From positions 2,084 through 66,083 of the forward strand of contig CAZSDK010000007.1 of assembly GCA_964605655.1 (NCBI GenBank): a stretch of 64,000 bases of DNA, written 5' to 3'. The position numbers and the translations under genes are program-made. Below, piece after piece: positions 2,596-30,405 of this stretch. Position 1 is the first letter of the stretch; the number at the start of each line of letters is the position of its first letter. The notes beneath the pieces are model-generated. The model saw nothing but the letters and a program-made list of their open reading frames with translations. It was not told the origin of the DNA and ran no database searches. The stretch is from an uncultured Bacteroidales bacterium. Its GTDB lineage: Bacteria; Bacteroidota; Bacteroidia; Bacteroidales; CAIXZF01.

Positions 2596-3843
2596 ATGAT
2601 CCCATACGAAAAGTTCACCCTGCCGAACGGTTTGAAGGTGATGATTCACCAGGATAAATCCACGCCCATTGTAGCGATGAACATCCTCTACCATGTAGGG
2701 GCAAAGGATGAAGACCCGGAACGGACTGGTTTTGCCCATCTTTTTGAACATCTGATGTTTGAAGGCTCGGTCAACATTCCGGTGTATGATGAGCCGCTCG
2801 AGAAGGCAGGCGGGCAAAACAATGCTTTTACCAACAACGACTTCACGAACTACTACCTGAGCATTCCAAAGCCAAACCTGGAGACAGCTTTCTGGCTGGA
2901 ATCCGACCGTATGCTGGGCCTTGACCTGAGTGAAGAAAAGGTCCGGATCCAGAAACAGGTGGTCATGGAGGAATACAAACAACGATACCTGAACCAGCCT
3001 TACGGAGATTTGTGGCTGCTTCTCAGGCCGCTGGCTTTTAAAGTACATCCTTACCGCTGGCCGACGATCGGGATGGACCTGGAGCATATCAGGAACGCGA
3101 AGCATCCGGATGTCCTCCAATTCTTCGACACGCATTATGCCCCGGGTAATGCCATTCTCACGCTGGCAGGGGATGTTGATCCTGATCAGGTTTATCATCT
3201 TGCAGAAAAGTGGTTCGGCCCCATTCAACGTCCTTATCTTTACCGCAGGAGTCTCACCCCTGAACCTCCCCAGACAGAGAAGAGAGAGGAGTGGGCAAGG
3301 CGGGATGTCCCTCTCGACGGTATCTATAAATGTTTTCATACTTACAAGCGGTATCATGAGGATTATGCAGTGACTGAGGTCATTGCAGATCTGTTCAGCC
3401 AGGGTGATTCCAGTATTCTCTATCAGGAGCTGGTTAAAAAGAAACAAATATTCGCGGATGTCAATGCTTTCGTGACCGGAGAAATGGAAAACGGGCTCAT
3501 GATCTTCGGAGGCAGGGTAAACCAGGGAGTCTCACCCGAGGAAGCCGACCGTCTGTTAACAGAGCAGATCGAGCGCCTGGCTTCAGAATTGGTTGATGAC
3601 CCTTCATTGGAAAAAGTGAGGAACCAGATGGTGACCACCTTATCTTTCTCAGAATTGAAAGCCCTTGAAAAAGCGATGAACCTCGCTTTCTACGAGTGCC
3701 TTGGTGACGCCGCACTTTGGGAGAGAGAAACCTGCTGTTATCTCAACACCAGCAAAGAGAAAATAAGAGAGGTCTGTCAGAAATTCCTGACCGGAAGCAA
3801 CTCTTCCACTCTTTACTACATCTGTGATCATACTAAAACCTGA
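2596..3843 (+). CDS. M16 family zinc peptidase, catalytic-type subunit, no signal peptide
   Basis: 415 aa. The inverted zinc motif HxxEH is present (FAHLFEHLMFEG) and the two-domain insulinase-like length fits. The N-terminus MIPYEKFTLPNGLKV is not hydrophobic, so it is probably cytoplasmic. Confidence 0.9.
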   Translation: MIPYEKFTLPNGLKVMIHQDKSTPIVAMNILYHVGAKDEDPERTGFAHLFEHLMFEGSVNIPVYDEPLEKAGGQNNAFTNNDFTNYYLSIPKPNLETAFWLESDRMLGLDLSEEKVRIQKQVVMEEYKQRYLNQPYGDLWLLLRPLAFKVHPYRWPTIGMDLEHIRNAKHPDVLQFFDTHYAPGNAILTLAGDVDPDQVYHLAEKWFGPIQRPYLYRRSLTPEPPQTEKREEWARRDVPLDGIYKCFHTYKRYHEDYAVTEVIADLFSQGDSSILYQELVKKKQIFADVNAFVTGEMENGLMIFGGRVNQGVSPEEADRLLTEQIERLASELVDDPSLEKVRNQMVTTLSFSELKALEKAMNLAFYECLGDAALWERETCCYLNTSKEKIREVCQKFLTGSNSSTLYYICDHTKT

Positions 3844-3943
3844 TAATACCTGCGTTATCTGTTTGAAAAAATTAATTCACAAGGCATACACTTCGGACAA
3901 CCATTGGAAATCCGCTTGTGTCTTGACAAGGTACTAGGAACTG

Positions 3944-4504
3944 ATGATCTCAGAGGCAGAACTAATAAAAGGGTGTCTTGAAGGCAACAAAGAGATCCAG
4001 AAAATGCTGTACCAGAGATATGCTTCAACGATGCTTGGAGTATGTTTCCGGTATTTTAATGACCGGGATGAAGCAGAGGATGCTTTACAGGAAGGCTTTA
4101 TTAAAGTCTTCACCAACCTGGGGTCATTTCGCAATGAAGGATCACTGGAAGGCTGGATCAGAAGGATCATTGTTAACACTTCGCTTAATATGATCCGTAA
4201 CCATTTGAAATTTCAGTTCCATACAGATATTGATGAAGCAGACTATCTTATAAAAGATGATGCTGATGTAATAAGTGATCTGACAAGGGAAGAGATGCTC
4301 AGGATGCTGAGAGAACTTCCCCCGGGATATAAGCTGGTTTTCAACCTGTATGAGATCGAAGGATACAGCCATAAAGAAATTGCCGATATGATGGGCATAT
4401 CCGTGAGCACCTCAAAAACTCAGCTGCTGAAAGCCAGAAAATGGTTACAAAAAAGATTGTTCCTGATGAACAAGGAAAAAATATCGGCCTTACGCAACGA
4501 ATGA
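3944..4504 (+). CDS. ECF-type RNA polymerase sigma-70 family factor
   Basis: 186 aa. Region 2 (DALQEGFIKVFTNLGSFRNEGSLEGWIRRIIVNTSLNMIRN) and a region 4 HTH (GYSHKEIADMMGISVSTSKTQLLKARKWL) are both present. Confidence 0.93.
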   Translation: MISEAELIKGCLEGNKEIQKMLYQRYASTMLGVCFRYFNDRDEAEDALQEGFIKVFTNLGSFRNEGSLEGWIRRIIVNTSLNMIRNHLKFQFHTDIDEADYLIKDDADVISDLTREEMLRMLRELPPGYKLVFNLYEIEGYSHKEIADMMGISVSTSKTQLLKARKWLQKRLFLMNKEKISALRNE

Positions 4505-5613
4505 ACATGGAAAACGAACGCAGTCCTTTAGGAGAACTCTTCCGGAAATCGTTTGATGATTTTCAACCGGAACCTTCACCGGCAGTTTGGGAGAAGATCA
4601 GTTCCCACCCCAAACTGAACATACCTGCAAAAAAATCATCCTGGTCTACAGCCAGGTATGTTTACTTATCAGGAGTGACGCTGGTAGTGATTGTTGGCAC
4701 TTATTTCATTTTCCAGCAATTCAGGCCTCATGAACAGCCCCGGCCCCAAAATCCGACCAGCGCCGTTCAGCCAGATGCTAAAACTGTTGGAGCCCTTCCT
4801 GAGATTATCTCCCAGCCGAAACCCATCAATCCGGTCCAACAGTCTCATAATCAGCAAGAAAATGCTGTTCAGGCTTCATCAAAACCTGAGCTCGAAGGGG
4901 CCAAGTCCAAAAACAACCCATCAATCGCGATGACCCAGCAGAGCAGGGAAAATGCAGGCAACATTCCCGGAGCCATTACCCAGAATGCAAAGATGGCCGG
5001 GGAGAACAGCAGCAAACCAGCCGGCAACCCTGTGGCCCAGGTGAAAAACAATCCCTCCTCCAACAACAAGCCCGTACCGACAGCTTCCGGTCATTCCGGG
5101 GTTATCCCTGACAACAAACCCATTGGCAATGTGGAAACTATTGAAAACCAGAAGATCTGTCGCGGAGAAGCGGTTACCCTCTGGGCCTCGGGTGGAACGA
5201 CTTATGAGTGGAGTACGGGTGAAACGACCAGTAACATCACCGTTAACCCTTCCAATACTACGACTTATTACCTGACCATCACTGATCATACCGGCCAGCC
5301 TTCGGAAAGTTCCGTCCTGGTAGAGGTATTTGAATGCAAGTCGATTTATATTCCCAATGCCTTCAATCCATACAGCGATGTAAACAGCAACTCCAGGTTC
5401 AGGGCTTACGGGACCGACATCAGCCAGTTCACGATGAGGATCTTCAGCCGTTCCGGGCAGATCGTTTACGAAAGCAACGACATCAATGAGGGATGGGACG
5501 GGCGCATCAAGGGGAAACCTGCAGAAATGGGTGTTTATGTTTACCAGGTCATTTATACGGATGTCGTTGGAAAGAAACAAACAGTAACTGGTCAGCTGAC
5601 ACTGATCAAATAA
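4501..5613 (+). CDS. anti-sigma-like single-pass membrane protein ending in a T9SS type-B (gliding-motility-associated) C-terminal sorting domain
   Basis: I moved the start to ATG 4501 (MNMENERSPL), which overlaps the sigma stop as ATGA. There is one TM segment (YVYLSGVTLVVIVGTYFIF) and a long P/Q/N/S-rich linker. An Ig-like module follows (CRGEAVTLWASGGTTYEWSTGETTSNITVNPSNTTTYYLTITD). The C-terminal domain reads IYIPNAFNPY...EGWDGRIKGKPAEMGVYVYQVIY...LTLIK. Confidence 0.8.
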   Translation: MNMENERSPLGELFRKSFDDFQPEPSPAVWEKISSHPKLNIPAKKSSWSTARYVYLSGVTLVVIVGTYFIFQQFRPHEQPRPQNPTSAVQPDAKTVGALPEIISQPKPINPVQQSHNQQENAVQASSKPELEGAKSKNNPSIAMTQQSRENAGNIPGAITQNAKMAGENSSKPAGNPVAQVKNNPSSNNKPVPTASGHSGVIPDNKPIGNVETIENQKICRGEAVTLWASGGTTYEWSTGETTSNITVNPSNTTTYYLTITDHTGQPSESSVLVEVFECKSIYIPNAFNPYSDVNSNSRFRAYGTDISQFTMRIFSRSGQIVYESNDINEGWDGRIKGKPAEMGVYVYQVIYTDVVGKKQTVTGQLTLIK

Positions 5614-5621
5614 GGAAGAAT

Positions 5622-6959
5622 TTGACTACAGATACCTTAGAAAGAAAGGTGGCCCCAAGGCCGGTCAACCTGACCGGCCTTTCCTCCGAAGATCCGATTT
5701 TCGGACTCGACAGGCTGAATGCTGTCCGTTTCCGATTGTCTAACGGTATCCCTGTCCATTGGATCCAGTCAGGCATAGCCGACCTGTATAAGATTGAAGT
5801 GATCTTCCATGCAGGATACATTTTTCAGAACAAGAACCTGCAGGCATCTTTTACCAATCAGTTGCTGAAAGAAGGCACCCTGAAGCACAGTTCCGGGCAG
5901 ATTGCCGGTTTGCTCGACCAATACGGTGCTTACCTGAGCAACGATACTGACAAGGACCGGGCCGGCATCACACTGTTTGTCAGGTCGGAACATTTCAATA
6001 AGGTGATGCCCCTGCTCGGAGAAATTCTCTGTGAACCCACCTTTCCTGAGGAGGAATTACAGCACCTGGCTATCAATAAGCAACAGCAGTATCTTGTCGA
6101 TATTCAGAAAGTCAGTTACCTGGCCACCAGAAAGTTCCATGAGAAGATCTTTGGTAACGACCATCCCTACGGAAGTGTGGTTGACTTTGATGATTATACA
6201 AATCTTACGCGGAATGATATAGGTGCGTTTTTTCAGGACCATTATACAGCGGCTCGATGTCTCATCCTACTTGCCGGACCGGAGCACGCCGACCTCATCC
6301 CCATGCTCGAAAATGCGCTGGGCGGGATGAAACAGGGTTCCATTGTCCAAACACCTGAGGTTGAAAAATATAGACCCAGGCCTGAAGATCTATTTTGTTA
6401 TATTGACAAGCCGGATGCCGTACAAAACGCCCTTCGCATCGGGATGCGGAGCATTCTTCCAGCACATCCGGACTATAACGGGTTGAAGGTGTTGAACACT
6501 TTGCTGGGAGGATATTTTGGTTCCAGGTTGATGAAAAACATCCGGGAGCGGAAAGGATACACCTATGGAATAGGTTCCGCCCTACTATCTTACGAAAAAG
6601 CAGGTGCCCTGGTGATCTATTCTGAGGTAGCCTCGGAAGTAGCTTCCCTGGCGATGCAGGAGATCCTCCATGAGGTGAGGGTCTTGTCAGAAAAAAAAGT
6701 GGATGAGTCTGAACTTGACCTGGTCAGGAATTATCTGCTGGGATCCTTTTTAAGGAGCATGGATGGGACCTTTGAAGTTGCATCACGACTAAAAAACCTG
6801 CTCATCTTCGGACTCAATGACCATTATTATTCCAAGTATATTAATGATATCCAGACAATAACATCCGGACAAATCCTTCAGCTTGCCGGGAAATATCTTT
6901 CTGCCGAGAATATGATTCAACTGATGGCCGGAAAAAAAAAGGATCCAGAAAATAATTAA
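5622..6959 (+). CDS. M16 family peptidase, non-catalytic-type partner subunit (HxxEH absent)
   Basis: Insulinase-like two-domain protein (RERKGYTYGIGSAL region) with no HxxEH where it would be expected (FHAGYIFQNKN). The track start at 5493 overlaps the upstream gene by 120 nt. There is no in-frame ATG just after the upstream stop, so I propose TTG 5622 (or GTG 5649). The start is uncertain. Confidence 0.8.
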   Translation: MTTDTLERKVAPRPVNLTGLSSEDPIFGLDRLNAVRFRLSNGIPVHWIQSGIADLYKIEVIFHAGYIFQNKNLQASFTNQLLKEGTLKHSSGQIAGLLDQYGAYLSNDTDKDRAGITLFVRSEHFNKVMPLLGEILCEPTFPEEELQHLAINKQQQYLVDIQKVSYLATRKFHEKIFGNDHPYGSVVDFDDYTNLTRNDIGAFFQDHYTAARCLILLAGPEHADLIPMLENALGGMKQGSIVQTPEVEKYRPRPEDLFCYIDKPDAVQNALRIGMRSILPAHPDYNGLKVLNTLLGGYFGSRLMKNIRERKGYTYGIGSALLSYEKAGALVIYSEVASEVASLAMQEILHEVRVLSEKKVDESELDLVRNYLLGSFLRSMDGTFEVASRLKNLLIFGLNDHYYSKYINDIQTITSGQILQLAGKYLSAENMIQLMAGKKKDPENN

Positions 6960-6988
6960 TACATTTATACATTGATAGCAATACCACA

Positions 6989-9900
6989 ATGATTATGATT
7001 AAAAAGCTATTTATTTCCATCGCGCTTCTTCTGGGACTCCTGGGATCCGCTTCCGCCTCCCATTACATGGGTGGTGAGATATACTGGAAGTGCCAGCCCA
7101 ACGGACAATATAAATTTTACATGCGTGTTTACCAGGAATGTGCCGGTATCTTGTACAGCACTGGTTCAGAGCAGTTAAGCACCAACGTGCCTGGGTTAAC
7201 TACCATCACGTTGTATTATGTGGATTCCACCGATATCTCGCCCAATTGCTACCCGGGTACAGGTCCGTTGTTCCCCCACCTGAATTGTGAAACCACGACC
7301 GTATCCAATACGGGAGGTGTCAGGGAATGGATATACGAATCCAATCCGGTCAGCCTTCCGGCGGGACCTCCCCCTGCCACGGGATGGGTATTCTCTTATA
7401 CCGGGTGTTGCAGGAACCCGTGCACCAATATTTCAAACACTTCATCGATGGACTGGTTCCTGAGAGCTATCATGTATCCCTATCCCTCAGCCACATACAA
7501 TACGTGCTGGGATAATTCACCCAGTTTTTTGGAGAGACCCTCCACCGTCATTTGCACGGGTTACCCTTTCTCCTATAACCCCAACGCCTACGACATAGAG
7601 CTGGATTCTCTCGCCTATGAATGGGCACAACCCTGGACAGGTAACAACACTCCGATTCCTGCAGGTAGTTATAACGGCACCTATTCATGGAACTCACCGC
7701 TGCCCGGTCCCGGGTTAAATCCGAACAATGTTGCCGCCACGGTGAACCCCAACACAGGAGAGGTTTCATTTACCTCATTTACCTCAGGGGCTTTCGTGAC
7801 TGTCAATAAAGTATCCGCATTCCGTTGCGGAGTGAAGGTCGCTGAGATCTTTCGCGAAATGCAGGTCGTGTTGCTCCCCTGCCCCGGTAACGATCCTCCG
7901 ACGGTCATCATCCAGTATCCCAATGGAGACACCCTTTCCAATTATGTCGACACCGTTTTTGCAGGAGCTATGGTATCCTACAATATGTGGGCCTTTGACG
8001 GTCAAATGCTCAATGACACTTTCACTCCCCAGACTATCAAGGTTACAGCCACCGGCACGCAGCTGGGACTTAACGGTATCAGTACCACCACCGGTTGTCT
8101 TAACCCACCCTGTGCCATCATTTTCTGGGGTGACACTATCAACCCAATGCCACTTCCTGCCTTGGGAATATGGGCCCTGAACACCCAGTTCCGGTGGCAG
8201 ACATCCTGCTCCCACCTCGCCACCGATATAGGGTGTGGCGGGGTTTCCAACGTTTATAACTTTATTGTGGCGACTTCTGATGATTATTGTCCGGCGCCTG
8301 CGATCCGATGGACCACCATTACCATTGTGGTTAAAAATGCGATCATGCCGCCTCCCAGTCCGCGATGTATCACGACAGAGCCGAATGGTCATCTCAAACT
8401 CTCATGGGTCATACCGGACACCATCGTTATTCCCAATACCTGGAATGCCTATCTGATATACCGGTCGACAAACATCAACGGACCTTATACCCTTATCGAC
8501 AGCCTTAAGACAGCTAACAACTACTATGTCACTTCCACCAACTGGACCGACCTGACTGCCCATGGAAATGATACCGTTTACTATTACTATATGCAGACGC
8601 GGTCAGGATGCTACGGGAACTACTTTTCTGCCTACTCTGACACCCTGAGTAATATGCTTTTGAACTCGACAAACACTCTTGATGGTCATGTACTTAACCA
8701 ATGGAACCCGATTTCAAATCCGCTGCCTCCCACCAGCACGGGAAAATACTCAGTACTCTTCCGGTATAACAGTGTATGGTCGGAACTGGACACTTCCTAC
8801 GACTGTTCAGCCTATTCACTGGTGAATGGCTGCGGGTATATCAAATTCAGGATCAGCCTGGCCGATGCCAGTGGATGTTCTTCCATGTCGAACATTGACA
8901 GTGCGCTCTTCCAGACCGCCACACCTCCTTTTCCCCATTGCCTGGCAGTGGAGCCCAACGGAAGCGTCACAGTGACCTTTGAACCCCCTGCCGACACCAA
9001 CCTTACCTTTTTCAGTGCCTACCTATTCTATTCCTCAGACACACCGACTTCCGGTTATAATTTGGTCGACAGCATCACCAACCCGGCCCAGTTCGTCAAG
9101 AACATCAGCGCCATTAATGCCAACGATGCTCCTGAATATCTTTATATTATCAACAGGATCTATTGCGACGGCTATTTCTATTCCAATACTTCCGACACCC
9201 TCAAAACACTTTTCCTGTCGATCACCAGCCTTAATCCTCTGAACAGCCAGCTCTTCTGGAATGTGATGCATGTGCCTCCCATTCCCAGTGCCTCTAATCA
9301 ATACGACATCTACCGGGGCTTTCCGGTAGGGGACTGGAATCATCTGACCCAGACCCCCTTACTTACCGCCACCGACAACCTGGTCTTGTGCGACGATACC
9401 ATCCCTTACCGCATTGAAATGGCAGATGCCATTGGTTGTGTTTCTGTATCCAATGTTGCCAAGACGAGGTATTACGACAACATTCCGCCTCCCATTCCGC
9501 TGCTGGACACCGTTTCCATTGACTCCATCACCGGATTCACTCATATCAGCTGGCTGCCCAACAGTCCGGAGACGAGTGGGTACCTCATTTTCTGGGATAA
9601 CGGAGGTACGCTTACCTTGTTAGACACGGTCTGGGGTACCAATACCACTCATTATGTCGATAATACCAGTCCTGGTAACGGTTGTGACGCTCCCAAATCC
9701 TATGTTATCGCGGCTATTGATTCCTGCTGGCTGACCAGTGGCATGGGGATCGACAAACCTCACAACACCATCCATCTCGAGATTGCTCACATCGATCCCT
9801 GCGGAGCCAAGATCACATTAAGCTGGAATCCATATCAGAATATGGTTGACACCTTGGGAGGGTACAGAGTGTACGTCAGTGACAACGGCGCTCCCTGGAC

Positions 9901-10927
9901 CTTACTGGGGAATGTACTCCCTGCAGGGCCCGGGTTCCCGGTACCAACGACCTTTACTCATGAAGGATTTGTTCAGGACCGTTATTACTGCTATTCCGTG
10001 CAGGCATACAACAACAGCAATACAAGAACATCCAGTTCATGCAAGGCCTGTATCTTTGCCACCAAACCCAAACAGCCTCAGTTTATTTTCCTCAGGAATG
10101 CCACGGTTAAACCTGATAATACCATCGATCTGAAACTGCACACCGACACATCGGCCTATGTGACGGAATACCGCATCCTCAGGGCATACGACAAGCCAGG
10201 TCCTTACCAGCTTGCAGGTAAACTGCCATCAAGCTGGGAACCCGATTTGATCTACAACGATGAATCGGTTGATCCTGCTAATTTCAGCTACTACTATGCC
10301 GTTACAGTCATTGACAGTTGTGGCCTGGAGGTTCTTCATTCAGATACGGCACGAACGATACTGCTCACCGTTGAACCGAAGGCTAACTTTACCAACCGTC
10401 TCGACTGGAACGATTACGAGGGCTGGACATGGTCGTTTGTCAAGGGATACCAGTTATACCGAAGCATTGACGGCATGACGGATCCTATCCCCATCGCCAC
10501 GGTGCCTTACGGAAAGCAGTTTTATGTCGATGATGTTTCAGGATATTTCGACACCCAGGGCAAGTTCCAGTATTATCTGGAAGCTTTGGAAGGGCCCGGA
10601 TCACTGGCTTTCAATGACACTTCCTATTCTAATGCTGCGGCAGATGTCCAACCATCTCATACCTATATACCCAATGCCTTCTCTCCAAAGGGATATAACA
10701 ACATCTTCAAACCTATCAGCATCTATGCCGATACCAAGAATTATTACTTCGTCATCTATAACCGGATGGGTGAGATGCTTTTCGAGACCAGGGACCCGTC
10801 GGAAGGATGGGATGGTACTTACGAAGGAGACTATGTACCCCTGGGTGTTTATATATATTACGTCAAGTTCACCACCTCAGGAGGTGAGAAATTTGAAAAA
10901 CGTGCTACCGTGACGGTAATTAAATAG
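6989..10927 (+). CDS. 1312-aa cell-surface protein with FN3/Ig-like repeats and a T9SS type-B C-terminal sorting domain
   Basis: Signal peptide MIMIKKLFISIALLLGLLGSASA. Modules of the form xLxWxxxxxxxxxxYxIYRS recur. The C-terminus reads TYIPNAFSPKGYNNIFKP...EGWDGTYEGDYVPLGVYIYYVKF...VTVIK, typical of the gliding-motility-associated C-terminal domain. Confidence 0.9.
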   Translation: MIMIKKLFISIALLLGLLGSASASHYMGGEIYWKCQPNGQYKFYMRVYQECAGILYSTGSEQLSTNVPGLTTITLYYVDSTDISPNCYPGTGPLFPHLNCETTTVSNTGGVREWIYESNPVSLPAGPPPATGWVFSYTGCCRNPCTNISNTSSMDWFLRAIMYPYPSATYNTCWDNSPSFLERPSTVICTGYPFSYNPNAYDIELDSLAYEWAQPWTGNNTPIPAGSYNGTYSWNSPLPGPGLNPNNVAATVNPNTGEVSFTSFTSGAFVTVNKVSAFRCGVKVAEIFREMQVVLLPCPGNDPPTVIIQYPNGDTLSNYVDTVFAGAMVSYNMWAFDGQMLNDTFTPQTIKVTATGTQLGLNGISTTTGCLNPPCAIIFWGDTINPMPLPALGIWALNTQFRWQTSCSHLATDIGCGGVSNVYNFIVATSDDYCPAPAIRWTTITIVVKNAIMPPPSPRCITTEPNGHLKLSWVIPDTIVIPNTWNAYLIYRSTNINGPYTLIDSLKTANNYYVTSTNWTDLTAHGNDTVYYYYMQTRSGCYGNYFSAYSDTLSNMLLNSTNTLDGHVLNQWNPISNPLPPTSTGKYSVLFRYNSVWSELDTSYDCSAYSLVNGCGYIKFRISLADASGCSSMSNIDSALFQTATPPFPHCLAVEPNGSVTVTFEPPADTNLTFFSAYLFYSSDTPTSGYNLVDSITNPAQFVKNISAINANDAPEYLYIINRIYCDGYFYSNTSDTLKTLFLSITSLNPLNSQLFWNVMHVPPIPSASNQYDIYRGFPVGDWNHLTQTPLLTATDNLVLCDDTIPYRIEMADAIGCVSVSNVAKTRYYDNIPPPIPLLDTVSIDSITGFTHISWLPNSPETSGYLIFWDNGGTLTLLDTVWGTNTTHYVDNTSPGNGCDAPKSYVIAAIDSCWLTSGMGIDKPHNTIHLEIAHIDPCGAKITLSWNPYQNMVDTLGGYRVYVSDNGAPWTLLGNVLPAGPGFPVPTTFTHEGFVQDRYYCYSVQAYNNSNTRTSSSCKACIFATKPKQPQFIFLRNATVKPDNTIDLKLHTDTSAYVTEYRILRAYDKPGPYQLAGKLPSSWEPDLIYNDESVDPANFSYYYAVTVIDSCGLEVLHSDTARTILLTVEPKANFTNRLDWNDYEGWTWSFVKGYQLYRSIDGMTDPIPIATVPYGKQFYVDDVSGYFDTQGKFQYYLEALEGPGSLAFNDTSYSNAAADVQPSHTYIPNAFSPKGYNNIFKPISIYADTKNYYFVIYNRMGEMLFETRDPSEGWDGTYEGDYVPLGVYIYYVKFTTSGGEKFEKRATVTVIK

Positions 10928-12575: not shown

Positions 12576-14576
12576 ATGAATGGTCTCAGAACATCTTTAA
12601 TTGCATTATTCGCATTTCTCTGCTTCACCGCAGCCGCCCAGACCCAGGATGATCCCGTCCTCATGCAGATCGCAGGATCCAAGGTCACTCGTTCGGAATT
12701 TCTGAATATCTACCAGAAAAACAACGTGAAGGGTGAGGTGATCGACAAAAAGTCACTCGATGAGTACGTGGAACTGTTCATTAACTTCAAGCTCAAGGTA
12801 AAGGAAGCTGAAGAACTCGGTATGGACACCATTACCTCGTTCGTAAATGAACTGGGTGGCTACCGGAAACAACTGGCTCAGAAATACCTTGTCGATGAGG
12901 AAGTTGACAGCCTTCTCATCAAGGAAGCTTATGACCGGATGCAAAAGGATATCAGGGCCAGTCATATCCTCATCAAGTGCGATGCCGGAGCCTCACCCAA
13001 AGATACTCTGGCGGCTTATAATAAAATTGTTGAATTACGTAACCGCATACTTAAAGGAGAAAAATTCGACAAAGTGGCCCGGAAAAGTTCCGATGACCTT
13101 TCAGCCCGAGACAGGGAAGCAGCTCAGAACAGGCCTTTTGTCAAAGGCAATGGCGGTGACCTGGGGTACTTTACTGTTTTTGATATGGTATATCCTTTTG
13201 AAACAGCTGCTTATAACACCAAGGCAGGAGAAGTATCCAAACCTATCAGAACCGAATACGGATATCATATCATTTATGTGACGGATGTCAGGAAAGCGAT
13301 GGGCAAGGCCAGGGTAGCCCATATCTTTACCAACCTGCAGCAGAAAGTGAATGCAGAGGACTCTGCTCTTGCCAAGACCCGGATCTTTGAAGCCTACGAA
13401 AAGATCAAACAAGGTGCTGACTGGGACACCATAGCCAAGCAGTATTCCGAGGACAAGGGTACGGCTGCCAAAGGCGGAATCTTACCCTGGTTTGGAGTTA
13501 ACCGCATGGTGCCGGAATTTATTCTTGCCGTGGCAAAATTGAAAAAAACAGGTGACATCTCGGAACCTATCACCACTCCATTCGGTTGGCACATCATCAA
13601 GCTGCTCGACAGAAAAGAAATCGGGAGCCTGGAGGACGTGAAAGCAGACATCAAACAAAAAGTGTCGCGTGATACCCGGTCGCAGCAAAGCAAGGAAGCC
13701 GTCGTGGCCAAGATCAAAGATCAGTATGGATTCCAGGAATTTCCGGCAAGGAAGACGGAAATCATCCCCTTCCTTGATTCGACGTATTTTCAGGCCACCT
13801 GGAAAGCCGGTAAAACAGATCACCTGAAAGGGACCTTGTTCACCATCGGTGACCGTTCTGCCACCACCGCCGATTTTGCCCGTTTCCTTGAAAAAGAACA
13901 AAAAGCAAAGACAGCAGAAGATTTTAATGTTCTTGTAAACCAGATGTACAAGAAATTCGTGGAAGAAACCTGCATGGCTTACAAAGACAGCAAACTGGAA
14001 TCTGAGTTTCCCGACTTTAAAAACCTGATGAAAGAATACAGGGACGGCATCCTTCTGTTCGACCTCACTGATAAAAAAGTCTGGTCGAAGGCAGTGAAAG
14101 ATACTGTCGGCCTCCAGTCATTCTATGATAAAAACAAGAACAACTATCTTTGGGGTGACAGGGCAGATGCCGTGATCTTTAAAGGGAAAGACCCATCGCT
14201 GATGGAAAAAGCTTTTGGTCTTATCAGCAAACAGCTCAAAAAAGACAAGCTCGACACGGCTGCATTCAATAAAAAAATAAATAAAGATCCCAAAAACATC
14301 GTCAAACCGGAATTTGGAAAATTCTCCAAAGGGGATAACAAATGGGTGGATGCCGTTACCTGGGAAAAAGGAATTTATCCCGTTACGGCAGCCGACGGCT
14401 CCTATTATTTCATCGTCATCCGCCAGAAACTGGCGCCCGAGCCCAAAACCCTGAATGAATCGAGAGGGCTCGTAACGGCCGACTATCAGAACTACCTTGA
14501 GAAGATCTGGATCAAGGAACTCAGGGATAAGTATCCTGTGTCGGTTAACAAAGATGTACTCTCTACCATAAAATAA
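12576..14576 (+). CDS. periplasmic peptidyl-prolyl isomerase/chaperone with two parvulin domains (PpiD/SurA-like)
   Basis: 666 aa with signal peptide MNGLRTSLIALFAFLCFTAAAQ. Two parvulin cores are present: GGDLGYF...GYHIIYVTDVR and GGILPWF...GWHIIKLLDRK. Confidence 0.88.
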   Translation: MNGLRTSLIALFAFLCFTAAAQTQDDPVLMQIAGSKVTRSEFLNIYQKNNVKGEVIDKKSLDEYVELFINFKLKVKEAEELGMDTITSFVNELGGYRKQLAQKYLVDEEVDSLLIKEAYDRMQKDIRASHILIKCDAGASPKDTLAAYNKIVELRNRILKGEKFDKVARKSSDDLSARDREAAQNRPFVKGNGGDLGYFTVFDMVYPFETAAYNTKAGEVSKPIRTEYGYHIIYVTDVRKAMGKARVAHIFTNLQQKVNAEDSALAKTRIFEAYEKIKQGADWDTIAKQYSEDKGTAAKGGILPWFGVNRMVPEFILAVAKLKKTGDISEPITTPFGWHIIKLLDRKEIGSLEDVKADIKQKVSRDTRSQQSKEAVVAKIKDQYGFQEFPARKTEIIPFLDSTYFQATWKAGKTDHLKGTLFTIGDRSATTADFARFLEKEQKAKTAEDFNVLVNQMYKKFVEETCMAYKDSKLESEFPDFKNLMKEYRDGILLFDLTDKKVWSKAVKDTVGLQSFYDKNKNNYLWGDRADAVIFKGKDPSLMEKAFGLISKQLKKDKLDTAAFNKKINKDPKNIVKPEFGKFSKGDNKWVDAVTWEKGIYPVTAADGSYYFIVIRQKLAPEPKTLNESRGLVTADYQNYLEKIWIKELRDKYPVSVNKDVLSTIK

Positions 14577-15424
14577 TGAGACTACCGGGCTTGTTTCTGT
14601 GCGTATTCCTCTTTCTGCTGGTCTCCTGTAACCGGCCTGGAAAGGATGCCAGCAACCCGGTTATTGCCAGGGTCTACAGTTCTTATCTTTACCAGAAAGA
14701 CCTGGTTGGAATGCTGCCACCCGGAACCTACGGCAAAGACAGCGTCGACTTTGTCAAACAATATATACAGAACTGGGTAAAGCAACAGTTGGTCCTTCAC
14801 CAGGCAGAAGATAACCTGAGCAAGAGTCAAAAAGACTTCACCAAGGAACTGGATGAATATAAGAACTCCCTGATTGTTTATGCTTATGAATCAGAGCTTA
14901 TCAGTCAAAAACTGGATACGGTTGTGACTGAAAAACAGATGGAAGAATATTACCGGTCCAATCCGGATGATTTTGAACTTAAAGATAATATTCTTAGAGT
15001 GTTATATGTGAAGATGAACAACGGCGATGCCCAGATCAGGAATATCAGGAACCTGATCAGATCGGGTAATCAGAACGACCGCCAGCGATTGGTTAAACTG
15101 TGCGCCACCTCTGCCGTAAATTCTTTTCTTGATGACTCTACATGGCTCTATTTCAACGACATGATCAAGGAGATTCCCATCACTACCTACAATCAGGAAG
15201 AATATCTTCAAAACCACCGTTACGTTGAGTTTTCGGATGAAGTTTACACCTACCTGATTAATATCCTCGATTTCAAGATCAAGGAAGGGAGTTCCCCTTA
15301 TGATCTTGAAAAAGACAACATCCGCCGGATTATCCTGAATAAGAGAAAAGTGAAGTTATTGAATGACCTGGAACAGGAAATCTATAACAAGGCCTTGAAT
15401 AATAAGGACTTTGAGGTTTATTAA
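14576..15424 (+). CDS. lipoprotein in the PPIase/chaperone cluster (no parvulin signature seen)
   Basis: 282 aa with a lipobox LLVSC after a hydrophobic leader. TAATG overlap with the upstream gene. Function is inferred only from its position between two SurA-like genes. Confidence 0.6.
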   Translation: MRLPGLFLCVFLFLLVSCNRPGKDASNPVIARVYSSYLYQKDLVGMLPPGTYGKDSVDFVKQYIQNWVKQQLVLHQAEDNLSKSQKDFTKELDEYKNSLIVYAYESELISQKLDTVVTEKQMEEYYRSNPDDFELKDNILRVLYVKMNNGDAQIRNIRNLIRSGNQNDRQRLVKLCATSAVNSFLDDSTWLYFNDMIKEIPITTYNQEEYLQNHRYVEFSDEVYTYLINILDFKIKEGSSPYDLEKDNIRRIILNKRKVKLLNDLEQEIYNKALNNKDFEVY

Positions 15425-15474
15425 TCCCCGTGTGATGCAATTTTTAAAGGCTTTTCCAGTTATCTGTTGATCCG

Positions 15475-16830
15475 ATGCATCAGTTTATGAGATATATAAA
15501 ATACGGGCTACTCTGTTTTGTTACGATTTTCATGACAGGCCGGACTTTCTCACAGGGAAAAGTCATCGACCAGGTGGTGGCAGTGGTGGCCGGCTATGCC
15601 ATTCTCCAATCCGACATTGAGAACCAATACTTGCAGTATAAAGCACAGGGACAGATTTCTGGCGGAGAAGAAATAAAATGCAAGATCCTTGAAAATCTTC
15701 TCTTTCAGAAACTCCTCCTTAACCAGGCTGAAATTGACAGCGTGGAAGTCACCGATGAACAAGTGGAAAACGAACTCAACCGCAAGCTAAGGTATTATAT
15801 TACCCAGTTTGGATCGGAGGAGAAATTTGTGGAATTCTATAAGAAACCCATCGTTGAGTTTAAAGAGGAGTTCAGGGATGTCATCCGGGACCAAAAAAAG
15901 ATAGAACAGGTTCAATACACCATTACGAAAGACGTAAAGGTGACCCCATCAGAGGTGAAGAGCTTTTTCAACAGCATGCCGACCGACAGCATTCCGCTCA
16001 TTAATGCTGAGGTGGAAATCGGTGTGATCGTGAAGAACCCGCCCGTAAGCCTGGAAGAAAAGGTCAGGGTAAGAGAAAAACTGCAGTCAATGAGGGACCG
16101 TATTCTCAAAGGAGAGGATTTTGCCACTCTGGCCATCATGTACTCTGAGGATCCGGGATCTGCCAGGAAAGGCGGTGAACTGGGATTTGTCGGGAGAGGA
16201 GAGTTGTACCCGGAATTTGAAGCCGTTGCCTTCAATCTGAAAAAAGGCGAAGTATCTGACATTCTGGAAACCAAGGCAGGATTTCATATCATACAGCTTA
16301 TTGAAAGGAAGGGAGAATACATTAATGTGAGGCATATACTCCTCATTCCGAAAGTCTCCTCAGAAGACCTGGTCAAGGCTAAACAAATCCTCGACAAAGC
16401 TTACAATCTGATCCAAAAAGATTCCCTCTCCTTTGAAAAAGCAGCACAGGAATACAGTGACGATCCCTCAAAGGTCAACGGTGGCCTCATGGTAAACCCA
16501 AACACGGGGACTACCCGTTATGAGATGGATGAAGTGGAACCTGCCGTTTCTTTTGCCATCGATAAAATGAATGTGGGAGACGTCTCGCAGCCGCTTCTGA
16601 TGAAGACAGATGACGGCAAACAAGCTTACCGTCTGGTGTATCTCAAATCGAGGACCGCACCCCATAAAGCCACGCTGAAGGAAGATTATGACCGTATCCA
16701 TCAGTGGGCCCTGGAAGAAAAAAACATGAAAACCATTGATAAATGGATCTCAGGAAAGGTAGACAAAACCTATATCAACATTATTGATTCATTTCAGCAA
16801 TGTCCATTTAACCATCATTGGATGAATTAA
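15475..16830 (+). CDS. SurA-like periplasmic chaperone/peptidyl-prolyl isomerase
   Basis: 451 aa with a signal peptide and a SurA N-terminal-like region. Parvulin cores: GGELGFVGRGELYPEF...GFHIIQLIERK, and a second GGLMVNPNTG...AYRLVYLK domain. Confidence 0.88.
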   Translation: MHQFMRYIKYGLLCFVTIFMTGRTFSQGKVIDQVVAVVAGYAILQSDIENQYLQYKAQGQISGGEEIKCKILENLLFQKLLLNQAEIDSVEVTDEQVENELNRKLRYYITQFGSEEKFVEFYKKPIVEFKEEFRDVIRDQKKIEQVQYTITKDVKVTPSEVKSFFNSMPTDSIPLINAEVEIGVIVKNPPVSLEEKVRVREKLQSMRDRILKGEDFATLAIMYSEDPGSARKGGELGFVGRGELYPEFEAVAFNLKKGEVSDILETKAGFHIIQLIERKGEYINVRHILLIPKVSSEDLVKAKQILDKAYNLIQKDSLSFEKAAQEYSDDPSKVNGGLMVNPNTGTTRYEMDEVEPAVSFAIDKMNVGDVSQPLLMKTDDGKQAYRLVYLKSRTAPHKATLKEDYDRIHQWALEEKNMKTIDKWISGKVDKTYINIIDSFQQCPFNHHWMN

Positions 16831-28947: not shown

Positions 28948-30405
28948 ATGAAAAAGCTATATTTTCTCCTGACCGTCATTCTCCTGCTTCCCTTCACTCT
29001 TTCTGCACAAAATGAGGATGATGCCCTTCGTTACTCCTTTCTGACCTTCGGAGGGACAGCCCGCAGCCTGGGCCTTGCCGGTGCCTTCGGAGCCGTCGGG
29101 GCCGACTTCTCCACCCTCAGTACCAATCCCGCAGGTATTGGACTGTACAAGAGCTCTGAATTTACCTTCACGCCTTCTCTCTTCGCAGGCAAGTCGAGCA
29201 CCAACTTCGGAAAGACATACGAGGACCAGAGGTATAACTTTAATTTCAGCAATGTGGGCATGGTGCTGGCCTTTCCCGCCAATACCGAACTGACCCGTTC
29301 CGGATGGAAGTACTTCCAGTTTGGATTCGGTATCAACAGAAACCAGGATTACAACAACCGCATGGTCATCAACGGCGAGAACCACCAAAGCTCATTGCTC
29401 GATCAATGGGTGAAGCTGGCCAACGGGAAAGCCTGGGATGAGCTCGATGCTTTTGACGTGGACCTGGGATACTGGACCTACCTGATCAACCCGGATTCCG
29501 CTGCAGGTGAAAACCAGTGGTCGACGGCTGTTCCCGCGGGAGGACTGTTACAAAGAAAAGATATTGATGCCCGTGGTTCGATGAATGAATGGGTGTTTAC
29601 CCTGGGAGCCAACTATGACGACCGTCTGTATTTTGGCGCCACCCTGGGTTTCCCTTTTCTGAACTACCACGAGGAAAGCACCTACCAGGAAGAAGCCCTG
29701 GCAGACGTCATAGGAACAGACCAGTTCAGGAACTTCTCTTACCACCAGAACCTGGATGTCGACGGTTCCGGGGTCAACTTCAAGTTCGGGATGATTTTCA
29801 AACCCGTGGATTTCATCAGGATAGGTGCTGCCGTGCATACCCCCTCCTACTTTTACAATTTGCATGAGAACTATTCTTCCTCCGTCAATTCCGAATTTGA
29901 TGACGGAAAGACTTATACCAAGGACTCTCCGGAAGGAAAATACGATTACAAGCTGAACACCCCCATGAGAGCCATGGGTAATATAGCCTTCATTTTCGGG
30001 CAGTACGGACTGATCAGCGTGGACTATGAGTTTGTTGACTATTCTGAGTCCCGTTTTCGTTCATCCGATGCCGAGGTGTATTTCGATGTGAACGACGCCA
30101 TCAGGAACAAATATACCACGGCTTCCAACCTGAGGGTGGGAGGAGAATACCGCATCGACCAGTTCACCCTCAGGGGTGGCTATGCCTTGTATGGCAACCC
30201 CTTCAAATCGGGGATCAACGACTCTGAAAGGACTTCCTATTCTGGCGGCATTGGCATGAGGCAGGACAATTATTTTCTCGATTTTGCCTATGTGTACACC
30301 GGCTGGAAACAGGATTATTATATGTACAGCTCCAAGCTGGTGGGCCCCTCCAAAAACGAGTACAGCGCCCACAACTTCCTGATGACACTCGGGTTTAAAT
30401 TCTAA
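28948..30405 (+). CDS. FadL/TodX-like outer-membrane beta-barrel protein
   Basis: 485 aa with signal peptide MKKLYFLLTVILLLPFTLSAQ. The N-terminal segment GGTARSLGLAGAFGAVGADFSTLSTNPAGIG resembles FadL/PorV-type barrels. Alternating beta-strand pattern, with a C-terminal LMTLGFKF ending in Phe. Confidence 0.7.
   Translation: MKKLYFLLTVILLLPFTLSAQNEDDALRYSFLTFGGTARSLGLAGAFGAVGADFSTLSTNPAGIGLYKSSEFTFTPSLFAGKSSTNFGKTYEDQRYNFNFSNVGMVLAFPANTELTRSGWKYFQFGFGINRNQDYNNRMVINGENHQSSLLDQWVKLANGKAWDELDAFDVDLGYWTYLINPDSAAGENQWSTAVPAGGLLQRKDIDARGSMNEWVFTLGANYDDRLYFGATLGFPFLNYHEESTYQEEALADVIGTDQFRNFSYHQNLDVDGSGVNFKFGMIFKPVDFIRIGAAVHTPSYFYNLHENYSSSVNSEFDDGKTYTKDSPEGKYDYKLNTPMRAMGNIAFIFGQYGLISVDYEFVDYSESRFRSSDAEVYFDVNDAIRNKYTTASNLRVGGEYRIDQFTLRGGYALYGNPFKSGINDSERTSYSGGIGMRQDNYFLDFAYVYTGWKQDYYMYSSKLVGPSKNEYSAHNFLMTLGFKF

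Follow-up and report, generated by a model that had tools for sequence, protein, structure and literature searches.

An ECF sigma factor gene of an uncultured Bacteroidales bacterium paired with a putative membrane-anchored anti-sigma factor that ends in a type B T9SS sorting domain

Envelope-spanning anti-sigma factors of the Dma type, which like the protein family described here are restricted to Bacteroidota, are paired with ECF sigma factors of the ECF21 phylogenetic group. Members of the family and their sigma factors include Dma1 (BT_4721) with Das1, Dma2 with Das2, and Reo with EcfO in B. fragilis (Pardue et al. 2024 PNAS, PMC10927553; PMC13088901). It is reported that residues 1-40 of Dma1 pull down the sigma factor Das1, that the C-terminal barrel of Dma1 is found in OMVs, and that proteolytic fragments appear (PMC10927553; PMC13088901). 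The gene of a Dma protein lies co-oriented directly after that of its ECF sigma factor, and the protein has four parts, namely an N-terminal cytoplasmic stretch, one transmembrane (TM) helix, a long tether that is disordered and periplasmic, and, as the C-terminus directed to the outer membrane, the defining 8-stranded beta-barrel, which is delivered via BAM.

[quoted passage not shown] According to one description, a Sec signal peptide that is cleaved off is common to all T9SS substrates, and functional type B signals are 150-235 aa long (PMC12618676). Type B CTD proteins are reported to remain bound to PorP-like outer-membrane proteins (PMC9143113). [quoted passage not shown] How the T9SS and its cargo are regulated is known in outline only; in Porphyromonas gingivalis, the T9SS-CTD protein PorA, acting with PorXY-SigP, signals from the surface to an ECF sigma factor over T9SS-related genes (PMC7712824).

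In this work, we describe a gene pair in the window, by which we mean the whole analysed stretch of 64,000 nucleotides (contig CAZSDK010000007.1 of assembly GCA_964605655.1). It shares its gene order and four-part layout with the Dma systems. The reading that we prefer, with a probability of roughly 55%, is that of a Dma-like ECF sigma/anti-sigma pair in which the outer-membrane beta-barrel is replaced by a minimal type B T9SS signal that engages the T9SS. The features of the locus are collected in Table 1.

Table 1. Features of the sigma/anti-sigma-like locus and its neighbours (window coordinates)
Feature	Position	Strand	Basis or remark
M16 peptidase, HxxEH present	2596..3843	+	Peptidase_M16 63.5 bits, Peptidase_M16_C 94.4 bits; upstream neighbour
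Candidate ECF-type promoter ACAAC-N17-TGTCT	3897..3923	+	Conserved in close loci
ECF (group 4) sigma-70 family sigma factor	3944..4504	+	186 aa; Sigma70_r2 and Sigma70_r4_2
Anti-sigma-like protein ORF, 370 aa	4501..5613	+	In frame, ATG 4501 to stop 5613
Conserved cytoplasmic motif S.IGELFKK.F.DY.PEPS..VW.KI, residues 1-36	4501..4608	+	Putative sigma-binding module
Predicted single TM helix, N-in signal anchor, residues 53-71	4657..4713	+	Hydrophobicity, AF2, family conservation
Predicted disordered periplasmic tether, residues 72-208	4714..5124	+	Rich in N/A/P/S/Q/K; pLDDT about 30
Ig-like beta-sandwich module, residues 209-279	5125..5337	+	C.GE..TLWASGG.TY.W..G motif of the CHU_C-associated Ig_7 type
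T9SS type B sorting domain (CHU_C / TIGR04131), residues 280-370 and stop	5338..5613	+	PF13585, TIGR04131
M16-family peptidase homologue, without signal peptide	5649..6959	+	Peptidase_M16_C 101 bits
1312-aa type B T9SS cargo	6989..10927	+	CHU_C 43.3 bits, TIGR04131 36.4 bits; classical signal peptide

The product of the first gene of the pair matches Pfam Sigma70_r2 (59.5 bits), Sigma70_r4_2 (64.9 bits) and TIGR02937 (106 bits, cut-off 42.9). It contains the sigma-2 and sigma-4 domains only and is of the size (about 180-200 aa) that characterizes group 4, and the nearest NCBIfam subfamily models, TIGR02985 (98.5 bits, cut-off 126.4) and NF058625 (85 bits, cut-off 130), stay below their thresholds. 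Its identity to the sigma factor of the related locus L003 is 82%. It shares 49% of residues with the sigma factor of locus L090, whose partner is a beta-barrel-type protein, and 35-43% with the partner sigma factors of some CHU_C-type proteins. Since the window sigma factor is thus nearer to a barrel-type partner than to some CHU_C-type partners, the sequences point to one sigma clade in which the distal module of the partner has been swapped.

Promoters autoregulated by ECF sigma factors have a -35 element of the AAC type and a -10 element of the GTC type. In the window and in loci L003-L009 (8/8 close loci), a motif of the form RCAAC-N17-TGTCW precedes the sigma start by about 20-50 nt, and its spacer is 17 nt in every one of them. 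The window contains one further match, which is intragenic (at 39523), where 0.53 are expected by chance; at the distant locus L091 the motif was not seen. The candidate promoter is presumably autoregulated.

The sigma stop and the following start overlap as ATGA at 4501-4504, as had been observed at first reading. The closest homologues begin with MENE..., and this start aligns with another in-frame ATG of the window ORF, at 4507; the corresponding sequence in L003 is GTGAacATG. The two genes therefore either overlap by 4 nt or lie 2 nt apart. A genuine ATGA overlap is present in L006, L007 and L008.

The first-pass annotation had taken this arrangement for a sigma/anti-sigma unit, and the adjacency on which that view depends proved to be conserved: an ECF sigma gene lies directly 5' of the gene for the protein with the N-terminal motif (N motif) in all 22 informative related loci. 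These include L003-L009, where the sigma gene is immediately upstream in 7/7, as well as L091, a distant CHU_C-type locus in a different neighbourhood, and the barrel-type locus L090. A metagenome scan with an N-motif DNA pattern, built from six close N-termini, independently found 12 informative loci, all of them with an ECF sigma gene upstream. Among the matches listed, a sigma homologue or an N motif occurred within 4 kb in 0/80 control loci, which are ordinary Ig and CHU_C cargo from the contig scan with full-length alignment and are dominated by a generic PNAFSPN pattern. Because both adjacency and architecture recur in every homologue examined, the pairing is more than chance.

The anti-sigma-like protein has a single hydrophobic segment, YVYLSGVTLVVIVGTYFIF (Kyte-Doolittle score 1.91 over 19 aa), and it is thus a protein with one TM segment, as proposed before; the soluble N-terminus in front of it is 52 aa long rather than the ~65 aa given at first. 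AF2 places a helix at residues 51-73, and 4 K/R occur within the 15 residues preceding the segment. Its position and length are the same in 27 family representatives, with a median start at residue 48 and a median uncharged run of 20 aa. The internal location, the late start and the conserved cytoplasmic motif and K/R residues before it argue for an anchor and not for a cleavable signal peptide, in agreement with the earlier assignment. The cleavable N-terminal Sec signal peptide of type B substrates is therefore replaced in this protein by a predicted anchor, in contrast to the neighbouring 1312-aa cargo, whose residues 1-24 form a classical signal peptide (MIMIKKLFISIALLLGLLGSASA, followed by S).

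Of the 52 cytoplasmic residues, the N motif is the part that defines a family. Its mean pairwise identity across 8 homologues is 42%, with P25, V29, W30 and I33 invariant, and AF2 predicts two short helices, at 9-17 and 27-34. This region gave no match to the ASD, zf-HC2, RskA or FecR models of known anti-sigma domains at E up to 10 in 8 members. The 52 residues contain no Cys or His motif of the HxxxCxxC type, and the N motif has no Pfam and no PDB match; a similarity to colicin E9 (PDB, E 0.15) was treated as chance. A word-indexed search with the alignment of the N-terminus and TM segment returned nothing at E<=0.01. An exhaustive profile search with the N motif retrieved 837 representative proteins from Bacteroidota, which have 1-6 tandem copies of the motif followed by one TM segment; one apparent member, P0037 (1007 aa, 13 'stretches'), was rejected as a repeat-driven false positive in which the motif was absent on re-scan. 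Pfam searches of 119 of the 837 representatives assigned OMP_b-brl_2 to 24, OMP_b-brl to 21 and CHU_C to 20 of them; any further family occurred at most once, and a type A tail was present in none. As judged from these matches, the recognisable C-termini of the family are outer-membrane beta-barrels or CHU_C. The N motif is predicted to bind the sigma factor.

The TM segment is followed by a linker rich in polar residues and proline, as had been noted, that runs from about residue 72 to 208-219 (~140 aa) and shows no secondary structure in AF2. Its sequence is poorly conserved (14% identity), yet its length is 117-137 aa in 7/8 homologues, and the distance from the TM end to the CTD is 180-213 aa in 25/27 representatives. 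The selection pattern is thus that of a conserved N motif and CTD joined by a linker that is free in sequence and fixed in length. The single Ig-like module recognised earlier, whose motif CRGEAVTLWASGGTTYEWSTG begins at residue 220, is supported by AF2 strands at 217-277 (pLDDT 76-92). The window protein did not reach E 0.1 against PF19081, which proteins matching this stretch carry in precomputed annotation, and in the PDB Foldseek found generic tandem Ig folds only, the best being the T9SS-secreted GhpA (E 2.5e-7).

At its C-terminus the protein has a true sorting domain of type B, as claimed at the outset: this domain scores 37.8 bits against CHU_C PF13585 (cut-off 27; residues 283-366) and 35.2 bits against TIGR04131, barely passing the cut-off of 35, while the relative P0101 scores 62.3 on the latter model. 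It is the best-conserved part of the protein (48% identity), with the consensus iP.AFtPn.Dg.ND, F.m.I.sr.g..vfes, GWDG, GvY.Y and G.ltLl across 27 representatives, and it matches ordinary cargo CTDs from other genomes with up to 85 bits. AF2 predicts two beta-sandwich domains, and the folded Ig and CTD region comprises ~160 aa.

Downstream, the anti-sigma-like gene is separated by 36 nt, without a terminator, from the gene of an M16 homologue, with which it is probably co-transcribed. This homologue is no obligatory part of the system, since it is absent from L003 and L094. Two M16 genes flank the pair in the window, L004, L005 and L093, and not in L003 or L094; they were considered as the site-1 protease and set aside, both being without a signal peptide and both missing in L003 and L094. 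A 30-nt gap with neither a terminator nor a second ECF promoter leads on to the 1312-aa cargo gene, probably the last of the sigma operon, and an IMPDH gene follows. In L003, L004, L005 and L094 an orthologue of the cargo is encoded downstream, and L006 has a CHU_C protein of 703 aa in that place; this linkage is confined to one syntenic clade, and the loci are non-independent observations. A separate promoter copy for the cargo gene was rejected, with no match before 6989 or before the L003-L006 cargo genes. We also rejected the idea that the anti-sigma CTD mimics that of the 1312-aa cargo, which ranked 71/104 by phmmer score in a set of CTDs chosen for similarity to the anti-sigma protein and therefore biased in its ranking. 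A T9SS is present in this genome, as the window encodes type A CTD proteins (31285-33450 and 42845-43756) besides the type B cargo. Among the 20 larger window ORFs scanned, there was a weak PorV/PorQ-like match at 28948-30405 (31.7 bits, cut-off 90) and no PorP/SprF gene, and none is adjacent to the pair.

The window protein is not a Dma member in the strict sense, because it lacks the C-terminal outer-membrane beta-barrel (no OMP_b-brl match) and has an Ig-like module and CHU_C instead. Its likeness to Dma1 and Reo is architectural, and the link between them is made by uncharacterised barrel-type proteins (OMP_b-brl_2) that share the N motif and also follow an ECF sigma gene. Whereas Dma proteins are delivered via BAM, delivery of the window protein would depend on the T9SS, and unlike them, its polypeptide cannot simply sit in the outer membrane. 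Compared with type B substrates, it passes both family models, keeps the conserved CTD positions, has an Ig and CTD region within the functional size range and is encoded in a genome with other T9SS cargo; it differs in having a cytoplasmic domain and a signal anchor in place of the signal peptide, in lacking a passenger domain and an adjacent PorP/SprF-like shuttle gene, and in being always coupled to a sigma gene.

Secreted anti-sigma factors serve as checkpoints in other bacteria, examples being FlgM with sigma-28 in flagellar type III export and Bordetella BtrA with the ECF sigma factor BtrS. In these systems, the secretion machine removes or inactivates the anti-sigma factor, and late or cargo genes are switched on only when the machine works. 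The logic is the one proposed in the first-pass annotation for the window pair, and there is no sequence relationship. FlgM and BtrA are soluble cytoplasmic proteins that are exported whole by a one-step system, whereas the membrane anchor of the window protein would leave only its periplasmic end within reach of a translocon in the outer membrane. PorA is similar in being a T9SS C-terminal domain protein that informs an ECF sigma factor, but it is secreted to the surface as a protein in its own right, carries a type A CTD and acts via the two-component system PorY/PorX, and it does not tether the sigma factor. In FecA-FecR-FecI and in the RsgI-SigI pairs of Clostridia, an anti-sigma factor relays the state of the cell surface or of the extracytoplasmic space to an ECF-type sigma factor, but FecR contacts a separate TonB-dependent receptor and has no secretion-system sorting signal. 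RsgI is laid out like the window protein, with an N-terminal anti-sigma segment, one TM segment and a long linker that leads to a surface module at the far end, but it belongs to monoderms and also lacks a secretion-system sorting signal.

Databases name members of this group 'gliding motility-associated C-terminal domain-containing' or 'T9SS type B sorting domain-containing protein', and one might accordingly regard the window protein as ordinary T9SS cargo that lies beside a sigma gene by chance, with a cleaved or unusual signal peptide and an N-terminal extension created by a mis-called start. This is highly improbable and looks already refuted by the conservation data, given that the stretch preceding the hydrophobic segment shows conservation at the protein level (42%) and is homologous to sigma-linked proteins without CHU_C, that a Met near the segment occurs in just 1/8 closest homologues, that most members have a hydrophobic run of 19-24 aa beginning near residue 48, and that the sigma gene is upstream in 22/22 loci against 0/80, among the matches listed, for real cargo. 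The long, disordered, protease-accessible linker and the large type B cargo gene in the same operon would also suit a precursor whose linker is cut constitutively or conditionally, so that the Ig-like module and CTD become a small T9SS surface protein and release of the sigma factor is a by-product that couples synthesis to export. Cleavage would remove the topological problem of tethered secretion, and stable C-terminal fragments of Dma1 occur in OMVs (PMC10927553). We consider this distinctly unlikely, as it is difficult to imagine what an Ig-like module and CTD without a passenger beyond the signal would do at the surface on their own, the conserved linker length suggests that an intact tether matters, and the linker, at 14% identity, has no conserved cleavage motif.

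A further alternative retains a true sigma/anti-sigma pair and sees in CHU_C and the Ig-like module a periplasmic beta-sandwich sensor or docking domain that is never handled by the T9SS and resembles a sorting signal through domain recruitment; its partner might be a ligand, peptidoglycan or the periplasmic face of an outer-membrane protein. Recruited periplasmic domains are common among anti-sigma factors, a substrate tethered to the inner membrane poses a topological problem, there is no adjacent PorP/SprF gene, TIGR04131 is passed marginally by the window protein, and every T9SS substrate described so far has a Sec signal peptide (PMC12618676). Against this stand the position of the CTD as the most conserved part, with the hallmark type B residues kept in 27 representatives, its matches of up to 85 bits to ordinary cargo CTDs of other genomes, and a periplasmic portion made of a tether and a signal-sized module and nothing else. 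The sole other recognisable C-terminus of the superfamily is also outer-membrane-directed, which argues that the architecture serves to reach the outer membrane. For these reasons, we judge the sensor or docking domain to be unlikely.

In the preferred reading, that of a Dma-like pair with a type B signal, the sigma factor would transcribe its own operon, comprising the genes for itself, the anti-sigma factor, the M16 homologue and the 1312-aa type B surface protein, from ACAAC-N17-TGTCT. The N-terminal ~36-aa motif would keep the sigma factor at the inner membrane, where the anti-sigma factor is anchored by its predicted single TM helix with the N-terminus inside, and the ~140-aa disordered tether would span the periplasm. 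The distal Ig-like module and CHU_C, which together approximate the size of a functional type B signal, may be recognised at the outer membrane by the T9SS or by a PorP/SprF-type shuttle. Altered engagement, that is, capture and pulling or a failure of capture, would expose the tether to proteolysis, and regulated intramembrane proteolysis would then free the sigma factor. The gene pair, its architecture and conservation, the promoter motif and the membership of a sigma-linked family with beta-barrel forms are observations, whereas sigma binding, T9SS engagement, the release of the sigma factor by proteolysis and the direction of the signal are inferred. Because the operon carries a T9SS cargo gene, we lean weakly towards a FlgM-like checkpoint, in which the operon is turned on once a working T9SS engages the protein, and away from a stress response to a block in secretion. 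More specifically, the anti-sigma factor could be a T9SS client, with capture of its type B signal, by pulling or stalling, triggering the cleavage that frees the sigma factor, so that a working T9SS licenses cargo transcription; this we put forward tentatively, as a possible though doubtful scheme. The 'secretion-capacity sensor' or 'pull-release' mechanism suggested in the first-pass annotation is conjecture. A counterpoint to the preferred reading is the nature of the substrate, which is tethered to the inner membrane and whose hydrophilic tether is unable to exit the SprA barrel sideways.

The earlier statement that no such circuit has been described holds in part. Tethered, envelope-spanning anti-sigma factors are known from the Dma systems (PMC10927553, PMC13088901), and a version with a T9SS signal appears in no paper that we found in the searchable literature; databases label the members only as T9SS cargo. 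The only new element is that a T9SS sorting domain stands where the barrel would be. If the link to the T9SS is true, the pair would provide type IX secretion with a transcriptional feedback device of its own and would be a FlgM-like secretion checkpoint of this system. The anti-sigma factor would be the first inner-membrane-anchored T9SS substrate and an exception to the rule that all T9SS substrates enter the periplasm via a cleaved Sec signal peptide. The link would also touch on the question raised by the discoverers of Dma, namely how the far end of an inner-membrane-tethered protein reaches the outer membrane. For at least 27 sequence clusters, the present label of plain T9SS cargo should give way to that of a probable anti-sigma factor, and the N-motif profile, with its 837 representatives, offers a handle for locating sigma partners across Bacteroidota. 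As the same N-terminal module is joined to either a beta-barrel or a T9SS signal, the family suggests a common principle, in which a sigma factor is tethered to a substrate that reports on a pathway of outer-membrane biogenesis or of secretion.

The stretch at 3944-5613 is occupied by two ORFs in the same orientation (see the table), and the first-pass annotation of them as an ECF sigma factor followed by an anti-sigma-like membrane protein was accurate overall, as judged from the ORFs, the domain matches, and an AlphaFold2 model; only the soluble N-terminus, given there as about 65 aa, is corrected to 52 aa. The proposed ATGA overlap at 4501-4504 is present in the sequence and is generated by the upstream ATG (4501), but a second in-frame ATG at 4507 aligns with the point where the closest homologues begin (MENE...), and the related locus L003 has GTGAacATG at the equivalent position. 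The two genes therefore overlap by 4 nt or are separated by 2 nt; unambiguous ATGA overlaps are found in the related loci L006, L007, and L008. A start at ATG 4441, taken from the ORF listing and giving a 64-nt overlap with the sigma gene, has no support from the homologues.

Positions of the probable sigma/anti-sigma pair and of other features in the window
Feature	Position	Strand	Remarks
M16-family peptidase gene	2596-3843		no signal peptide
Candidate ECF-type promoter	3897-3923	+	RCAAC-N17-TGTCW; just upstream of sigma; conserved in related loci L003-L009
ECF sigma factor, 186 aa	3944-4504	+	Sigma70_r2 59.5 bits; Sigma70_r4_2 64.9 bits; TIGR02937 106 bits (cut-off 42.9)
Anti-sigma-like protein, 370 aa	ATG 4501 to stop 5613	+	in-frame ORF after sigma
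M16-family peptidase gene	5649-6959		no signal peptide
Type B T9SS cargo, 1312 aa	6989-10927
Three consecutive periplasmic PPIase/SurA-like chaperone genes	12576-16830	+	right after IMPDH; sigma operon within a few kb
ORF, 643 aa	26982-28913		precedes 28948-30405; Gly/Ser-rich tail; no family match
ORF, 485 aa	28948-30405	+	signal peptide; OMP-like C-terminus (...LGFKF); no Pfam match
Two type A T9SS sorting-domain proteins	31285-33450; 42845-43756	+; -	Por_Secre_tail, 41 and 49 bits
Second promoter-pattern match	39523-39549	+	within coding region 38814-39803
Large secreted protein	61496-64000	+	'choice-of-anchor L' domain (255 bits); Calx-beta and PKD repeats; continues past window end

The C-terminal 90 aa of the anti-sigma match CHU_C (PF13585) with 37.8 bits, above the cut-off of 27, and the anticipated match to TIGR04131 holds narrowly (35.2 bits, barely over the cut-off of 35). 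In the AlphaFold2 model, based on eight homologues, residues 9-17 and 27-34 form two short helices and residues 51-73 the TM helix; the chain is unstructured between 74 and about 207 (pLDDT about 30), and two beta-sandwich domains are predicted with confidence, at about 210-277 and 280-370 (pLDDT about 90). Each of eight close homologues contains a single hydrophobic segment (Kyte-Doolittle 1.7-2.6 over 19 aa) with K/R-rich sequence ahead of it and, in only one of the eight, a Met close by. Medians for the uncharged run in 27 representatives are 20 aa for its length and residue 48 for its start. Mean pairwise identity reaches 42% in the pre-TM stretch, which only one other part of the protein exceeds, and falls to 21% in the TM and 14% in the linker. 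In contrast, the adjoining 1312-aa CHU_C cargo has a textbook signal peptide (residues 1-24). The position of the segment and the conservation ahead of it bear out a membrane anchor, and cleavage of this segment as a signal peptide appears very unlikely.

The adjacency of the two genes is conserved in relatives. An ECF sigma gene lies immediately upstream in all seven full-length homologues of the first search (24-42% identity), including L008 and L009, where the remaining neighbours differ, and also upstream of the distant CHU_C-type member P0101, whose otherwise unrelated neighbourhood contains Lon and a beta-CASP nuclease. Metagenome contigs were scanned independently with a DNA pattern built only from the N-terminal motif, which returned 13 loci; a homologue of the window sigma was directly upstream in 12, and the thirteenth locus begins 110 bases from a contig end. 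Around ordinary Ig+CHU_C cargo of species-representative genomes, neither a sigma homologue nor the N motif was found within 4 kb in any of 80 control loci, among the matches listed.

The spacer of the candidate promoter is invariably 17 nt in the window and in L003-L009. The pattern has only one other match in the window, which is probably due to chance, since 0.53 matches are expected, and no copy was found ahead of the large cargo gene. The gaps between anti-sigma and M16 gene (36 nt) and between M16 gene and cargo (30 nt) are short, and no terminator-like site was found in either. Given these gaps and the lack of a separate promoter copy, the simplest reading is that sigma, anti-sigma, M16 homologue, and type B cargo would form one autoregulated operon. 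This gene order is repeated in L004 and L005, and in L093 up to the second M16 gene, after which nothing is listed to the locus end; in L006 the cargo's place is taken by a 703-aa CHU_C protein. As these loci, together with L003 and L094, have wider synteny in common (SHMT ... IMPDH), they are not independent evidence for the cargo link. The pair is interposed between two M16-family peptidase genes that would ordinarily be adjacent partners. Both are absent from L003 and L094, where other synteny is retained and the cargo directly follows the anti-sigma.

The general design is that of Dma, a Bacteroidota anti-sigma family (Pardue et al. 2024, PMC10927553; follow-up PMC13088901). Its members have a sigma-binding region at the N-terminus, then a TM helix and a long intrinsically disordered tether, and end in an outer-membrane beta-barrel. 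For Dma1 it is reported that residues 1-40 pull down the ECF21 sigma Das1, that full-length protein occurs in membranes and C-terminal fragments in OMVs, and that proteolysis varies with growth phase; the authors propose that outer-membrane perturbation leads to proteolysis and sigma release. Barrel-type proteins with the window N motif have exactly this architecture and the Pfam annotation of Dma1, OMP_b-brl_2. The window protein would have every feature but the barrel, its N motif being a putative counterpart of the N-terminal segments of Dma1 and Reo (the B. fragilis member). The first-pass interpretation is supported in part. Sigma/anti-sigma pairing and anchor topology hold up well; the design is published; a T9SS sorting signal replacing the barrel is, as far as we found, undescribed; and coupling to secretion is a proposal. 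The first-pass remark that such a circuit was not known to have been described has to be narrowed. Our literature search returned no published description of an anti-sigma combined with a T9SS sorting domain. In public databases, 'gliding motility-associated C-terminal domain-containing protein' and 'T9SS type B sorting domain-containing protein' are the sole names given to family members, and every named member comes from an uncultured Bacteroidales or Bacteroidota MAG.

The two type A sorting-domain proteins and the type B cargo show that the organism uses the T9SS; the large protein at the window end is possibly another substrate. We estimate at about 0.5-0.6 the probability that the T9SS or a shuttle engages the distal module of the anti-sigma at the outer membrane. 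Its folded periplasmic part consists of the Ig-like module and CHU_C (about 160 aa) with no passenger domain ahead. Current reviews and primary work (PMC12618676; PMC9143113) give 150-235 aa as the length of functional type B signals and state that every T9SS effector has a Sec signal peptide. On account of this size and the missing passenger, we infer that the sorting signal itself may be the functional 'sensor'. Against this count the lack of any PorP/SprF gene found near the anti-sigma and the absence of special closeness between its CTD and that of the neighbouring cargo; that the distal domain is instead a T9SS-independent periplasmic sensor seems unlikely. The only hint of a shuttle is a weak PorV/PorQ-family match (31.7 bits against a cut-off of 90) of the 28948-30405 product, perhaps a divergent barrel of T9SS shuttle-like or FadL-like type.

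The hydrophilic tether also counts against a sorting signal acting as sensor: with no lateral exit from the SprA barrel open to it, complete translocation would either require cleavage or stall the pore. As further alternatives, a precursor that is cut to yield a small surface protein is decidedly improbable, and ordinary T9SS cargo is hardly credible. Judging by Dma1 and by ECF biology in general, the sigma would, with roughly even chances, be released through proteolysis. With a type B cargo gene apparently in the operon, it may be physiologically more sensible for a working T9SS to activate the system (checkpoint logic) than for blocked secretion to do so, although this argument is weak, since the cargo linkage is limited to one clade.

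An exhaustive profile search with soluble N-termini only as query yielded 837 representative proteins at E<=0.001 (46 at E<=1e-10). In the best 150 of the 837, the motif occurs singly or in 2-6 tandem copies at the N-terminus, after which come a single hydrophobic segment and a C-terminal region that varies. Pfam analysis of 119 of these assigned OMP_b-brl_2 to 24, OMP_b-brl to 21, CHU_C to 20, any other family to at most one member each, and type A Por_Secre_tail to none. Tandem copies of the ~32-aa motif (F..fe..P....W..I) before the TM are found in beta-barrel-type and other relatives (P0025-P0170; e.g., P0025, P0036, and P0029), and such repetition of a putative sigma-binding unit would be unusual among anti-sigma factors. 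Two multi-repeat members, P0030 and P0063, have sub-threshold NF052375 'anti-sigma factor' matches over the motif/TM region (29 and 36 bits, cut-off 100), a hint that an NCBI anti-sigma model already covers one branch of the superfamily.

The CHU_C subgroup (27 sequences after clustering at 50%) is strikingly uniform: the motif is invariably single-copy, the TM starts at residue 34-58, and in 25 of the 27 total length is 341-371 aa, with 180-213 aa from TM end to CTD, also in 25. The CTD consensus keeps iP.AFtPn.Dg.ND, F.m.I.sr.g..vfes, GWDG, GvY.Y, and G.ltLl. Downstream of the distant CHU_C-type pair, L091 encodes a large secreted protein (5500-7386; signal peptide, beta-helix-like repeats, truncated by the contig end) that may be a further surface protein following such a pair. 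An ECF sigma also precedes P0027, the one barrel-type member looked up. The window sigma shares 49% identity with the sigma that precedes P0027 but only 35-43% with the partners of distant CHU_C types, which points to a single sigma clade whose partner proteins have exchanged their distal module.
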